The notes: generated by a model not told the origin, from the letters alone. A stretch of 64,000 nt of DNA from a virus (IMGVR_UViG_3300043399_001190), one strand, 5' to 3'. Positions 58,783-62,336 are shown, numbered from the stretch's first letter. Program-made: numbers and translations.

Positions 58783-58837
58783 AGAATGCGTTCAGCAATT
58801 AAAAACTTTACTTGGAATAAAGCAAAAAAGCATTCTG
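58783..58837 (+). ncRNA. Family A RNA, copy 1 (displays a Pro UGG anticodon stem-loop)
   Basis: AGAATGC/GCATTCT stem, GTTCAGCAA, CTTTA-CTTGGAA-TAAAG. Confidence 0.65.
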
Positions 58838-58846
58838 TTTTATAAT

Positions 58847-58924
58847 GCCCCGGTGACGGAATTAGGTATACGTGTTGGTCTTAGAAACCAAATTTTAGGA
58901 GTTCGAGTCTCCTCTGGGGCACCA
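58847..58924 (+). tRNA. tRNA-Leu(TAG), short variable loop
   Basis: Loop CTTAGAA; CCA. Confidence 0.88.
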
Positions 58925-58925
58925 C

Positions 58926-58954
58926 TTGACTCGCTTTGATTGATGGCGTATAAT
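58926..58954 (+). promoter_or_regulatory. sigma70 promoter inside the tRNA array
   Basis: TTGACT-17-TATAAT. Confidence 0.7.
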
Positions 58955-58967
58955 AAGATAAATAATC

Positions 58968-59074
58968 AATCATTTTTATGAAGCACATTGTTAGTTAAAG
59001 GGGTTGGCGTCCTGAAGCAGAAGCGGCCAGCAGCCAATTGGGTTGATCTTCTGTCAGTGTGTTTCATAAAGATT
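58968..59074 (+). ncRNA. Family B long-stem RNA, copy 1
   Basis: TTTATGAAGCACATTG pairs with CAGTGTGTTTCATAAA. Confidence 0.5.
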
Positions 59075-59149
59075 GGGGGATTAGTGCTAATGGGAACACA
59101 CTTGTTTTGCAAGCAAGAATTAGGAGTTCGATTCTCCTATCCTCCACCA
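59075..59149 (+). tRNA. tRNA-Ala(TGC)
   Basis: Loop TTTGCAA; G3:U70 identity pair; CCA. Confidence 0.92.
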
Positions 59150-59159
59150 AAAGATTTTT

Positions 59160-59235
59160 GCCCCTGAAGCATTGCTGGCGATGCAACTGATTTGTAACCA
59201 GAAGATAGGCGGTTCGATTCCGTCCGGGGGCACCA
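59160..59235 (+). tRNA. tRNA-Thr(TGT)
   Basis: Loop TTTGTAA; weak anticodon stem; CCA. Confidence 0.85.
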
Positions 59236-59243
59236 AGTTTTAT

Positions 59244-59308
59244 GCGGTCGTTTTAAACAACAATAGGGTCCACCTGTTGTCTACGTGGGAATCGTAGTGA
59301 CCGCTCCA
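59244..59308 (+). ncRNA. D-armless tRNA-like RNA ending in CCA
   Basis: GCGGTCG/TGACCGC acceptor followed by T-CCA; ACAACA/TGTTGT arm; CTACG-TGGGAAT-CGTAG arm. Confidence 0.55.
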
Positions 59309-59315
59309 GTTTTAT

Positions 59316-59392
59316 CCGTGTATAGCGCAGTCTGGTAGCGCATCTGGTTTGGGACCAGAGGGTCGGGAGTTCGAATCTCTCTACACGGACCA
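59316..59392 (+). tRNA. tRNA-Pro(TGG)
   Basis: Loop TTTGGGA; CCA. Confidence 0.93.
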
Positions 59393-59400
59393 GTTTTTAT

Positions 59401-59476
59401 TGCGGCGTAGGGAAATGGTATCCCACTGGCCTCATAAGCCAGAGGTAGTTGGTTCGATTCCAACCGTTCGCAACCA
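59401..59476 (+). tRNA. tRNA(CAT), Met or Ile2
   Basis: Loop CTCATAA; bulged acceptor stem; CCA. Confidence 0.8.
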
Positions 59477-59480
59477 ATAA

Positions 59481-59555
59481 GGTTGTATGACGTAGACGGA
59501 TGCGTACCGCCCTCATAAGGCTAGGAGGTTGGATCGTTACCAACTACAACCACCA
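59481..59555 (+). tRNA. tRNA(CAT), Met or Ile2; atypical T-loop ATCGTTA
   Basis: Loop CTCATAA; imperfect anticodon stem; CCA. Confidence 0.75.
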
Positions 59556-59561
59556 AAATAT

Positions 59562-59638
59562 CCGTCCTTAGCTCAATGGATCAGAGCATTTGGCTACGAA
59601 CCAAAAGGTTGGGGATTCGAATTCCTCAGGGCGGTCCA
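59562..59638 (+). tRNA. tRNA-Arg(ACG)
   Basis: Loop CTACGAA; CCA. Confidence 0.92.
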
Positions 59639-59643
59639 TATAT

Positions 59644-59717
59644 ACCCGGTTAGCTCAAAAGTAGAGCATACGACTGATAATCGTAAGACAGAGGAGCGTT
59701 ACCTCTACTGGGTACCA
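59644..59717 (+). tRNA. tRNA-Ile(GAT), atypical T-loop AGCGTTA
   Basis: Loop CTGATAA; CCA. Confidence 0.87.
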
Positions 59718-59722
59718 ATTTT

Positions 59723-59815
59723 AGAATCGTTTCAGCAAACCAATACTTGTCTTTGGATGACAATTTGCCTTCTAAGCAAACTAAGTAGGTTCGATTCCTA
59801 TAGTAAGCGATTCTG
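59723..59815 (+). ncRNA. Family A RNA, copy 2 (two anticodon stem-loops plus a T-arm)
   Basis: AGAATCG/CGATTCT; TTTCAGCAA; TTGTC-TTTGGAT-GACAA; TTTGC-CTTCTAA-GCAAA; GTAGG-TTCGATT-CCTAT. Confidence 0.68.
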
Positions 59816-59824
59816 TTGTACGTT

Positions 59825-59900
59825 ATCTCGGTAGCTCAACTGGCAGAGCAGCGGTCTCCAAAACCGAAGGTTGAGGGTTCGATTCCTTCCCGGGGTGCCA
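59825..59900 (+). tRNA. tRNA-Trp(CCA)
   Basis: Loop CTCCAAA; CCA. Confidence 0.9.
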
Positions 59901-59922
59901 ATTTTTTAAAAGGAGAAATAAC

Positions 59923-60129
59923 ATGAGTGATGGAGGAAAAGGTTCAAAGCCACGCCCATTCAGTGTTTCGAATGAAGAATATGCAAAACGTTGGGATGCT
60001 ATTTTCGGAAAAGATTTAGAAAAGGATCTTCGTGAAAAAGCATTGCAACAAATGGTCGATGAGAATCAGAGGCTAGGGCTTTATGATGATCTAGACCAAC
60101 AACTGAAGAGTAGTGGTAACTATAAATAA
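59923..60129 (+). CDS. Small hypothetical protein
   Basis: SD aaggag; GGKGS.PRP......Y...WD.IF motif typical of phage tRNA regions. Confidence 0.7.
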   Translation: MSDGGKGSKPRPFSVSNEEYAKRWDAIFGKDLEKDLREKALQQMVDENQRLGLYDDLDQQLKSSGNYK

Positions 60130-60827: not shown

Positions 60828-60900
60828 GCGGGTATTCTCCTGGGAGAGGACTTAGCCTTCCAAGCTAAAGAAGCCGGTTCGAATCCGACTACCCGCTCCA
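60828..60900 (+). tRNA. tRNA-Gly(TCC)
   Basis: Loop CTTCCAA; U73; CCA. Confidence 0.9.
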
Positions 60901-60993
60901 TATAAAAACACATTACACGCCATGTAACTAGCGGTGGTAGCCTAGTGAAGGGTGCTTCTCCTACCGAGAAGTTTATAGTGTGTTTCTATATGG
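60898..60993 (+). ncRNA. Family B long-stem RNA, copy 2 (possible kissing loops)
   Basis: 18-bp helix starting at the Gly CCA; inner hairpins ACTAG/CTAGT and CTTCTC/GAGAAG with complementary loops GGTAG and CTACC. Confidence 0.55.
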
Positions 60994-60999
60994 TTTAAT

Positions 61000-61073
61000 G
61001 CGGGTATGATGTAAAGGTAGCCTGTGACCTTGCCAAGGTTAGTGTGAGAGTTCGATTCTCTCTACCCGCTCCA
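61000..61073 (+). tRNA. tRNA-Gly(GCC)
   Basis: Loop TTGCCAA; CCA. Confidence 0.92.
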
Positions 61074-61081
61074 AATTTTAT

Positions 61082-61157
61082 GGAGTTATTAGTGTAGTGG
61101 TCTGCACACCATGTTGTGACCGTGGTAGTATGAGTTCAATCCTCATATAACTCCCCA
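61082..61157 (+). tRNA. tRNA-His(GTG)
   Basis: G-1:C73; loop TTGTGAC; CCA. Confidence 0.92.
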
Positions 61158-61172
61158 ACGCAGAAAGAAAAT

Positions 61173-61412
61173 ATGAAATTTGTTCCTTTGAATAACAATG
61201 TTATTGTGAAACGTAAAGATCCTATTAAAACAACGTCCTCTGGTATTGTTCTACAGACTTCTCTAGAACCTGACCGTGGCATCGTTGTTGCAACTTCCAC
61301 AAACGATGTGGAAATTGGAAATGAATTGTTACTAAATTGGAACAAAGCATATAAGATTGACAATGAACACTACAAGATTCATGTCAGTGAAATCATTGCC
61401 ATCTTCGAATAA
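61173..61412 (+). CDS. GroES-like co-chaperonin
   Basis: PL.N.V.VK......TT.SGI.L......G.VVA...I.A pattern. Confidence 0.8.
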   Translation: MKFVPLNNNVIVKRKDPIKTTSSGIVLQTSLEPDRGIVVATSTNDVEIGNELLLNWNKAYKIDNEHYKIHVSEIIAIFE

Positions 61413-61418
61413 TTTTTT

Positions 61419-61494
61419 GCCTCGTTAACTCAGCGGTATGAGTAGCTCCCTTACAAGGAGAAGGTCGGCGGTTCGATCCCGTCACGAGGTACCA
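61419..61494 (+). tRNA. tRNA-Val(TAC)
   Basis: Loop CTTACAA; CCA. Confidence 0.92.
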
Positions 61495-61498
61495 ATTT

Positions 61499-61572
61499 GC
61501 TCTCATAGGTAAATGGCATACCGCATCCTTGGTAAGGATGTATTCCAAGTTCGATTCTTGGTGGGAGCACCA
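61499..61572 (+). tRNA. tRNA-Thr(GGT)
   Basis: Loop TTGGTAA; CCA. Confidence 0.92.
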
Positions 61573-61579
61573 AATTAAT

Positions 61580-61655
61580 GCAACTCTAGCTGATGTGGTC
61601 ATAGCGGCGGTCTGAAGAACCGTTGAAAGAGGTTCGATTCCTCTGGGTTGCACCA
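61580..61655 (+). tRNA. tRNA-Phe(GAA)
   Basis: Loop CTGAAGA; CCA. Confidence 0.92.
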
Positions 61656-61661
61656 AAAAGC

Positions 61662-61689
61662 TTGACAAAAAACAGGAATACGCTATAAT
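61662..61689 (+). promoter_or_regulatory. sigma70 promoter
   Basis: TTGACA-16-TATAAT directly before tRNA-Leu(TAA). Confidence 0.8.
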
Positions 61690-61699
61690 ACATGTATTC

Positions 61700-61782
61700 G
61701 CGGCTGTGGTGGAACGGTAGACACAGGAGACTTAAAATCTCCCGCCTTGAGCGTGTGGGTTCGAATCCCACCAGCCGCACCA
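61700..61782 (+). tRNA. tRNA-Leu(TAA)
   Basis: Loop CTTAAAA; variable arm; CCA. Confidence 0.93.
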
Positions 61783-61788
61783 AATATT

Positions 61789-61865
61789 GCCCTTGTAACC
61801 CAATAGGTAGAGGTGGCAGACTCAAAATCTGTTTAGTGTCGGTTCGAATCTGACCAAGGGTACCA
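61789..61865 (+). tRNA. tRNA-Leu(CAA), short variable loop
   Basis: Loop CTCAAAA; CCA. Confidence 0.88.
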
Positions 61866-61933
61866 TTAAATTTACGCAGTAGTGGCTATGCGTGTAACAA
61901 AACGAAACCTCAGGTACATGAGAGTTGTGCCCA

Positions 61934-62023
61934 GGAAGATGCAGTAAGATGGGTCTTACGCCCGCCTGGAAAGCGGGAGGTTGGTGTTAGCTGGCCGGGG
62001 TTCGATTCCTCCTTCTTCCACCA
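61934..62023 (+). tRNA. tRNA-Ser(GGA)
   Basis: Loop CTGGAAA; long variable arm; CCA. Confidence 0.85.
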
Positions 62024-62048
62024 ATGTGATAAAAATACAACAAGATGG

Positions 62049-62077
62049 TTGACAAATTACACTTAACTTGTTAGAAT
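62049..62077 (+). promoter_or_regulatory. sigma70 promoter for family A copies 3-4 and the Ro60-like operon
   Basis: TTGACA-17-TAGAAT with an extended TG. Confidence 0.8.
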
Positions 62078-62104
62078 CTCTATATTGAGATTGAGAAAGT
62101 TTTT

Positions 62105-62267
62105 AGGCAAGGTGCAGCAATAATCCAAACATGAAACAGTTGGTGTACTATGGTAGTTGTCTGGAGTACGGAGTCTTGACCGAGTACATTGAAGGACGCT
62201 ACTGAAGTAGTCCCAGCAAGGAGAGTTTCGATTTCTCTCTGTAATCAAAAAGTAGAAAACTTGCCTG
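62105..62267 (+). ncRNA. Family A RNA, copy 3 (tRNA-like insert with T-loop hairpin)
   Basis: AGGCAAG/CTTGCCT; GTGCAGCAA; GTACT/AGTAC arm; CTAC-TGAA-GTAG; TTCGATT-loop hairpin. Confidence 0.62.
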
Positions 62268-62275
62268 TTGTTTTT

Positions 62276-62336
62276 AGGTTAGGTTCAGCAACCCAATAGC
62301 ATACAACTTGTAATTGTAAACGCAAAAACTAACCTG
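62276..62336 (+). ncRNA. Family A RNA, copy 4 (displays a Thr UGU anticodon stem-loop)
   Basis: AGGTTAG/CTAACCT; GTTCAGCAA; TACAA-CTTGTAA-TTGTA. Confidence 0.68.

Follow-up and report, generated by a model that had tools for sequence, protein, structure and literature searches.

A stretch of viral DNA of 64,000 nucleotides (nt), IMGVR_UViG_3300043399_001190, was analysed here and is called the window. Between positions 58783 and 62335 it carries four related elements which, judging from their conservation and covariation, are genes for small RNAs of a large phage RNA family that is absent from the catalogues. We named them CAGCAA-handle RNAs. Each joins a conserved handle to a variable cargo that resembles a piece of a tRNA. 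The handle RNAs are probably partner RNAs, analogous to Y RNAs, of the protein encoded beside them at 62357-63778, a DUF2828 protein for which a Ro60 fold is predicted.

The pattern TTTAG-N5-KTK-CAGCAA was found four times in the window, always on the plus strand, at 58780, 59720, 62102 and 62273. The chance expectation was 0.16 matches, and none of 100 shuffles gave four. In a descriptor search the 7-nt 5′ strand of every copy paired perfectly with a 3′ strand followed by GTT, the stems being AGAATGC/GCATTCT (copy 1), AGAATCG/CGATTCT (copy 2), AGGCAAG/CTTGCCT (copy 3) and AGGTTAG/CTAACCT (copy 4). An earlier note on this DNA, made by reading the letters, had described four copies with a shared scaffold and paired variable stems, and it was correct about their places and their pairing. 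Each copy is laid out as a closing helix of 7 base pairs (bp), NUN-CAGCAA, the cargo, an A-rich linker and a CU-GUU end; in the helix the A-U and G-C pairs are fixed and the remaining five covary. All four copies end in CUGUU and none in CCA, also as described. The RNA genes and the features belonging with them are the following.

58783-58836, plus strand, 54 nt: copy 1, short form, handle with a single anticodon-arm mimic, loop CUUGGAA (‘Pro UGG’); 63.9 bits with the covariance model R1 described below.
59723-59814, plus strand, 92 nt: copy 2, handle closing a tRNA body; R1 43.7 bits.
62105-62266, plus strand, 162 nt: copy 3, long form, handle with a large structured insert that includes a T-arm-like hairpin; found by descriptor and stem pairing.
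62276-62335, plus strand, 60 nt: copy 4, short form, handle with a single anticodon-arm mimic, loop CUUGUAA (‘Thr UGU’); R1 70.1 bits.
62049-62077, plus strand: promoter-like site of the sigma-70 type (TTGACA, 17 nt, TAGAAT, extended TG), a near-consensus match only.
62357-63778, plus strand: gene for a DUF2828 and DUF7788 (vWA/MIDAS) protein of 473 amino acids, assigned with Pfam, AlphaFold2 and Foldseek.
57038-62023, plus strand: tRNA array holding copies 1 and 2, with 26 tRNAs called by ARAGORN plus 2 found by Rfam only.

The cargo of copies 1 and 4 is a single hairpin with a 5-bp stem and a 7-nt loop, CUUUA-CUUGGAA-UAAAG and UACAA-CUUGUAA-UUGUA, respectively. Copy 2 carries three hairpins of the same dimensions, TTGTC-TTTGGAT-GACAA, TTTGC-CTTCTAA-GCAAA and the T-arm-like GTAGG-TTCGATT-CCTAT. 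In these three copies the hairpins are those that the earlier note had listed, as is the identity of the CUUCUAA loop of copy 2 with that of the tRNA-Arg(UCU) at 54922. The note had further taken copy 2 to display two separate anticodon arms, Pro UGG and Arg UCU, together with a T arm. The hairpins are present, but the Rfam tRNA model matched the interior of copy 2 (59744-59806, 29.1 bits) across all three of them, and we favour another reading. Because the model covers them all, we read the first hairpin (UUUGGAU loop), which falls at the D-arm position, as a stand-in for the D arm. Copy 2 would then be a tRNA body lacking both the acceptor stem and CCA, and not a display of two anticodon arms; it would be made up of a D-position hairpin, the ‘Arg UCU’ anticodon arm with its CUUCUAA loop, and a T arm with the loop UUCGAUU. 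Copy 3 contains the T-arm-like hairpin expected of it, GAGAG-TTTCGAT-TTCTC, within a larger fold, and its 3′ linker, AAGUAGAAAA, is common to the gene-proximal long forms of relatives. ARAGORN, which called 27 tRNAs in the whole window, called none of the four copies. Copies 3 and 4 lie between the promoter-like site, just upstream of them, and the DUF2828 gene, an arrangement that had also been proposed, and the 3′ end of copy 4 is 22 nt ahead of the start codon.

The extent of the family was estimated from 80 metagenomic phage loci retrieved with the 62357-63778 protein, whose encoded proteins are 68-88% identical. A strict descriptor yielded 223 instances (169 unique) in these loci and the window, every one of them on the strand that carries the gene. 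Pairing was assessed in the same set without being presupposed: 5′ halves of the form AG-N5-N3-CAGCAA were collected, and an exact Watson-Crick 7-mer followed by G was sought within 400 nt. Such a 3′ partner was found for 177 of 192 distinct 5′ halves, compared with 1.3 when the five variable stem bases were shuffled. When 80 short forms were aligned, no variation was seen in the A-U and G-C closing pairs, in CAGCAA, in two linker A's or in the 3′ C-U-G-U-U. In each of the five other helix pairs, both bases had changed in 2 to 49 of the sequences. The three nucleotides before CAGCAA are mostly GUU, with the middle one mostly U. Most members are preceded by (G/U)UUUU and followed by GUUGU or GUUAU.

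The cargo was then compared across the family. A 5-bp/7-nt hairpin was present in 68 of 81 unique short forms (49-64 nt), and the composition of these 68 loops was tallied without any loop filter. C32 was found in 47 loops, U33 in 58, U or A at position 36 in 61, A37 in 60 and A38 in 57. A34 was found in only 2, though A makes up 48% of the interior. The composition of the short-form loops is an anticodon-loop signature. Canonical YU-NNN-RN loops occurred in 83 of 168 RNAs, where 200 shuffles gave 3.6 on average and 10 at most, so that the anticodon-like loops which the earlier note expected in homologues were indeed found. Among the 1232 real tRNAs of these loci, too, no loop frame is more common than CU-NNN-AA. 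One loop may occur on several compensating stems, CUUCUAA on six of them. When mimic stems were compared with the stems of same-anticodon tRNAs of the locus, mostly 0-4 of 10 positions were identical; therefore recent copying of the phage's own anticodon arms was ruled out as the origin of the mimics. The triplets UUU, UGU and UCU account for 55% of mimic triplets and for 10% of those of the 1232 real phage tRNAs. Triplets differ among paralogues in one phage and among position-equivalent copies in relatives. Among the long forms (n = 87), 36 had a T-arm-like hairpin and 30 an anticodon-like hairpin. A 116-nt long form of one relative matched YrlA (RF02553) end to end via its T and D arms, with 35.7 bits, below the gathering threshold of 69 bits. 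The cargo forms a graded series from a lone anticodon arm to YrlA-like bodies.

In one conserved subclass, short handle RNAs have GCUAAC-UUUGGAUG-UCUAGCGAC as their cargo where others have an anticodon-like 7-nt loop. Examples of it are the following.

L010 907-974: handle RNA with GCUAAC cargo.
L012 2400-2467: handle RNA with GCUAAC cargo.
L015 2864-2936: handle RNA with GCUAAC cargo.
L017 965-1036: handle RNA with GCUAAC cargo; others have the same cargo.

The handle RNAs are linked to the DUF2828 gene both within this group of relatives and far beyond it. Upstream sequence was long enough in 61 related loci; the nearest handle RNA ended within 100 nt of the start codon in 45 of them and within 300 nt in 54. 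A covariance model, R1, was built from the short forms. In the window it recovered copies 4, 1 and 2 and missed only copy 3, because of its long insert. The earlier note had suggested testing co-occurrence with DUF2828 genes by means of a covariance model, and with R1 matches were obtained in eight of eight distant DUF2828 phages, whose proteins are 33-48% identical to that of the window, and in none of five large control phages without the gene (T4, T5, SPO1, phiKZ and Bxz1; 860 kb), where the best E-value was 1.07. The gene search used for the controls was validated on positive genomes. The R1-positive phages are the following.

Synechococcus phage BUCT-ZZ01 (a cyanophage): R1-positive.
Cronobacter phage S13: R1-positive.
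Stenotrophomonas phage DLP_6: R1-positive.
Listeria phage P100: three tandem copies, 70-340 nt upstream of gp165.
Felix O1-like phage HY02: three copies just downstream of the DUF2828 gene.
Mycobacteriophage LeBron: one copy directly after gp53.
KVP40-like phage phi-pp2: R1-positive.
Campylobacter phage F368: two copies just upstream of the DUF2828 gene.

The distance between RNA and gene is at most a few hundred nucleotides in five of the eight (the cyanophage, P100, HY02, LeBron and F368); in DLP_6 and phi-pp2 the RNAs are 7-16 kb away from the gene. The sequences from the distant phages keep [A/U]G-N5, three nucleotides, CAGCAA and then N5-C[U/A]-G. At least 705 deposited phage genomes contain a DUF2828 gene.

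Two of these phage groups showed additional features around the gene. In Cronobacter phage S13 (L002 7896-8288), an annotated 121-nt ‘tRNA-Ser’ and a 113-nt ‘tRNA-OTHER’ lie directly downstream of the DUF2828 gene, and a handle RNA of 135 nt comes next, at 8154-8288. These two overlong ‘tRNAs’ may be hybrids of a tRNA and a handle. In P100-type Listeria phages a gene for RtcB, annotated as ‘tRNA splicing ligase’, is found 1-3 kb downstream of the DUF2828 gene (L084 5078-7021; L094 5474-6359), and in P100 an annotated metal-dependent phosphohydrolase lies at a like distance downstream.

The protein encoded at 62357-63778 was examined next. Pfam assigned DUF7788 (1.7e-47), DUF2828 (3.1e-20) and a weak VWA_2 match. 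An AlphaFold2 model of the protein, built with 71 diverse homologues, reached a predicted local distance difference test score (pLDDT) of 93.4 and a predicted template modelling score (pTM) of 0.91. When this model was searched against the PDB with Foldseek, ranks 1-12 were all Ro60/TROVE structures, aligned over the full length of the model with E-values of about 1e-9 and template modelling (TM) scores of 0.41-0.64. The top matches included Xenopus and human Ro60, Deinococcus Rsr, the Ro60 of Thermus phage phiLo and a TROVE domain; isolated vWA/MIDAS domains ranked below this set. Among Swiss-Prot models, the Ro60 proteins of mouse, Deinococcus, worm, frog and human came first (TM up to 0.63), followed by telomerase p80. 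The MIDAS motif DxSxS (D277, S279, S281) was invariant in the 71 homologues. Because the fold matches Ro60, the MIDAS motif is invariant and no match was obtained at the sequence level, we conclude that the modelled protein is of the Ro60 fold (HEAT-repeat ring plus vWA domain) and belongs to a separate sequence family. The earlier note had called the gene Ro60-like, and the predicted fold agrees with it.

That the handle RNAs are partner RNAs of this protein is the best reading because four lines of evidence converge on it: the conserved handle, its strict co-occurrence with the gene, mostly next to it, across bacterial phyla, the graded cargo series, and the precedent of Ro60 and its Y RNAs. 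The DUF2828 protein is presumed to be the protein partner. A set of observations weighs against the partner-RNA reading. The protein has no Pfam TROVE match, and a phmmer search with it against PDB sequences gave no match, Ro60 included. The phage handle (helix plus CAGCAA) is unlike the Ro60-binding helix of YrlA. The skew of the triplets to UUU, UGU and UCU could mean that a single loop motif, CUUNUAA, is preferred, and not that many anticodons are displayed. Moreover, gp130 of phage Bas63, a structurally Ro60-like protein that counters the Ppl defence system, restored T7 plaquing on a Ppl host by itself (10.1101/2024.10.10.617714); therefore that activity needs no RNAs of its phage.

The remaining points against it concern expression. 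In Listeria phage CKA15 a DUF2828 orthologue was found in purified virions, and its authors suggested that nearby abundant RNAs might be Y RNAs; the small open reading frames (ORFs) CKA15_059-061 were reported to make up 7-34% of transcripts in infected cells. These ORFs (L094 1827-2378, OR088597.1) overlap a full-length ROOL RNA match (RF03087; 90.1 bits, gathering threshold 99.1, E = 1.9e-18), located about 1 kb upstream of the DUF2828 gene. The hyper-abundant RNA was thus rejected as a handle RNA. The three handle RNAs of CKA15 occupy a separate, unannotated stretch with its own TTGACA promoter, directly upstream of CKA15_055, and the text of the paper does not name this stretch among its hot spots. 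Because the hyper-abundant stretch is ROOL RNA and the handle RNAs lie elsewhere, the CKA15 paper offers no direct expression evidence for them, and its ‘three highly transcribed regions’, the dominant one being the ROOL RNA, were rejected as such evidence. No RNA run was listed for the window itself. Contigs from two lake metatranscriptome studies reach across the region of a relative that corresponds to copies 3 and 4 and the beginning of the gene, but these contigs are only 2-4 deep, DNA carry-over is possible, and they were not counted as expression.

Y RNAs near such phage genes had already been guessed at in two papers (PMC12282133; bioRxiv 10.1101/2024.10.10.617714), neither of which defined this RNA family, and a search of the literature on DUF2828, DUF7788 and related terms found no description of the handle RNA family.

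If the handle RNAs are partner RNAs of the DUF2828 protein, the following mechanism can be proposed. The handle, that is the 7-bp helix, three nucleotides, the unpaired CAGCAA, the A-rich 3′ linker and the CU-GU(U) tail, would be where the protein ring docks. The variable part would be the exposed tRNA piece: an anticodon arm in copies 1 and 4, an acceptor-less body in copy 2 and a T-arm-bearing insert in copy 3. The tRNA array is probably co-transcribed, and processing of its transcript would release copies 1 and 2; copies 3 and 4 would be transcribed from the 62049 promoter along with the gene. We infer that the RNAs accumulate and bind the protein. The particle so formed would expose surfaces resembling tRNA to enzymes of the host or the phage that act on tRNAs, either as a competitor (decoy) or as a tether, and would in this way affect such enzymes.

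The handle RNA family provides a concrete and mutable candidate partner, with a short handle and swappable tRNA-piece cargo, which can be tested in cultivable phages. Despite the wide occurrence of Ro60-fold DUF2828 genes and a counter-defence orthologue, no RNA partner has been defined for them so far. The minimal members amount to a tRNA mimic cut down to one anticodon arm, and they narrow the search for targets to enzymes that read the anticodon loop, namely anticodon nucleases and the modifiers of position 34 or 37.

The earlier note had proposed a more specific role, in which the RNAs, bound by the Ro60-like protein, offer anticodon decoys to anticodon nucleases, modifying enzymes or synthetases of the host. 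On this view the particle, by its bare anticodon arms, would soak up host anticodon nucleases (of the PrrC, RloC, AriB or colicin type, or HEPN RNases) or enzymes that modify the anticodon loop. In its favour, the anticodon-loop signature is seen in the loops, with A34 nearly absent, and their triplets vary among paralogues and position-equivalent copies. The enriched anticodons UUU, UGU and UCU include known nuclease targets, for example tRNA-Lys(UUU), and the orthologous protein of the Felix O1 type is a counter-defence factor. However, the one defence that is known to be overcome is Ppl, for which no tRNA activity is known, and gp130 acts against it without the RNAs. The mimic stems are unlike those of same-anticodon tRNAs, and elbow and acceptor determinants would be absent. 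The phage moreover encodes real tRNAs with the same anticodons, which would replace cleaved tRNAs more simply. On balance we regard a dedicated decoy as unlikely.

Alternatively, the elements might act in cis, as processing punctuation of the tRNA operon and/or as a leader by which the protein would regulate the mRNA that encodes it, and not as stable trans-acting RNAs. The location of copies 1 and 2 between tRNAs, the conserved UUUU and GUU flanks, and the placement of copy 4 just ahead of the start codon, with similar placement in 45 of 61 relatives, would all suit such a role. On the other hand, the RNAs are downstream of the gene in LeBron and Felix O1-like phages and 7-16 kb off in DLP_6 and phi-pp2. 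Punctuation has no need of several diverged paralogues per genome with differing tRNA-like cargo, and the look-alike Class I RNAs of Dictyostelium are abundant and stable (PMC7919456). A role in cis is therefore improbable, and we judge it less likely than the partner-RNA reading. The same holds, more strongly, for binding of the handle by some other host or phage protein, with the DUF2828 gene as a mere neighbour in an island of tRNA and RNA metabolism. Gene adjacency is weak evidence of binding, and the one protein shown to bind Class I RNAs directly in Dictyostelium is the RRM protein CIBP/Rnp1A. However, RNA and gene stay paired across phages of Gram-positive, Gram-negative and actinobacterial hosts with unrelated gene orders, and the RNAs are gone where the gene is absent, which makes another binder quite improbable. 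Finally, the acceptor-like 7-bp stem with an anticodon arm, inside a tRNA array, might suggest decaying tRNA relics, selfish repeats or minimal ‘armless’ tRNAs for translation, but this reading too is less likely than that of partner RNAs and can practically be dismissed, given that CAGCAA and the closing pairs are invariant across phages with ~33-48% identical DUF2828 proteins, that covariation is abundant, and that the short forms have no CCA, no discriminator context and no T arm.

The surroundings of the RNA genes in the window contain further features. Two tRNA-model matches in the array, 59402-59472 and 59481-59552 (56.5 and 37 bits), were found by Rfam and not by ARAGORN, and both have CUCAUAA loops. 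Other non-coding stretches of the array (58955-59074, 59236-59315, 60617-60827, 60901-60999 and 61866-61933) lack CAGCAA; some look, by eye, as if closed by long-range complementary ends, e.g. GCGGTC...GACCGC at 59245/59300, and these stretches may be other structured RNAs. Three small protein genes lie inside the array: a 68-amino-acid ORF without a Pfam match at 59923-60129, a gene for an RNaseH_like (PF04308) protein at 60146-60616 and one for a Cpn10-like co-chaperonin at 61173-61412. The DNA immediately behind the Ro60-like gene holds the beginning of another ORF, at 63896, which runs past the window end at 64000. Its first 35 residues match the RF-1/GGQ peptidyl-tRNA hydrolase domain (PF00472) with 23.6 bits, below the cut-off because the window end truncates the ORF; it looks like an ArfB/PrfH-like ribosome-rescue factor adjoining the RNA module.

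The handle RNAs were finally compared with known systems. Phage-encoded tRNAs replace or evade host tRNAs that are cut by defence nucleases. Like these replacement tRNAs, the handle RNAs are phage RNAs found in tRNA arrays, and the anticodon loop would be the point of contact with tRNA-targeting defences. Replacement tRNAs are, however, complete and chargeable, whereas the handle RNAs have no acceptor end and mostly no D and T arms. A megablast search of the region against deposited phages returned tRNAs only.

In phage Bas63 the Ro60-like gene is directly upstream of tRNA genes, and the authors guessed that some annotated tRNAs are Y RNAs (10.1101/2024.10.10.617714). The comparison with gp130 is made by its description: the DUF2828 gene of the Felix O1-type phage HY02 is 38% identical to that of the window and has its handle RNAs just downstream. 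The preprint defined no RNA family, and in T7 the protein alone sufficed.

The earlier note had not recognised the four RNAs as a described family. This holds insofar as Rfam 15 assigned the four copies to no family at threshold, but the scaffold closely resembles that of the Class I RNAs of Dictyostelium (RF01414), the best sub-threshold match. Copy 1 scored 32.3 bits, below the gathering threshold of 41.5 bits, with all 56 model positions aligned; relatives scored 30.7-32.3 bits and Listeria phage CKA15 22.8 bits. The alignment covers the terminal stem, sets CUUACAGCAA opposite GUU-CAGCAA, and takes in the adjoining UUAAAA, the A-rich 3′ portion and the UG behind the stem. Class I RNAs are about 60 nt long, start with AAG, end with CUGU and have a covarying 6-bp stem and an unpaired 11-nt motif, CCUUACAGCAA, with invariant U3, C6, C9, A10 and A11; they have been reported as unique to Dictyostelia (PMC7919456). 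The proteins pulled down with them are GuaB, NdkC, CIBP/Rnp1A and DDB_G0281243, the last of unknown function; CIBP/Rnp1A is the only one shown to bind directly.

The phage RNAs share with Class I RNAs the length of about 60 nt, the (A)AG start and CUGU end, the covarying terminal stem, the unpaired motif ending in CAGCAA, a variable interior and an A-rich 3′ part, the ends of the phage RNAs being those predicted from the sequence. They differ in that the NUN-CAGCAA motif is one nucleotide shorter, that Class I RNAs have a DUSE element where the phage RNAs have sigma-70-like promoters or would be processed from a tRNA operon, that the direct binder in the amoeba is an RRM protein, and that anticodon-arm cargo has not been reported there. 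The shared handle is the first lead on Class I RNAs outside Dictyostelia. It invites a far-reaching speculation, which we hold to be a long shot, that the helix-plus-CAGCAA handle is a universal dock for Ro60 proteins of the DUF2828 type, with Class I RNAs as eukaryotic members of the same ribonucleoprotein class and DDB_G0281243 as a possible missing protein; the Swiss-Prot matches of the modelled protein included no such Dictyostelium entry. The phage particle would then carry interchangeable anticodon-arm decoys or sensors against tRNA-targeting bacterial immunity.

The closest functional precedent is Ro60 with its Y RNAs. Over 250 bacteria and phages have YrlA-type Y RNAs beside a TROVE gene (PMC4201824), and a phage Ro60, that of phiLo, binds two phage Y-like RNAs, Yrl1 and Yrl2, and host PNPase (PMC12135203). 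The phage protein described here differs in being DUF2828/DUF7788 and not Pfam TROVE, and the YrlA model gave no match at E ≤ 10 in the window at 58600-62500. The short forms carry an anticodon arm only, a cargo that we have not found described for YrlA. As for the tRNA-like domain, copy 2 has both a T arm and an anticodon arm, copy 3 a T-arm-like hairpin, and copies 1 and 4 have neither a T arm nor a D arm. The systems are alike in that the gene for a ring protein of HEAT repeats and a vWA domain adjoins small RNAs, and the RtcB gene near the DUF2828 gene of Listeria phages recalls the rsr-yrlBA-rtcBA repair operons. In both, the ends of the RNA are paired into a stem and the opposite end is a tRNA mimic.

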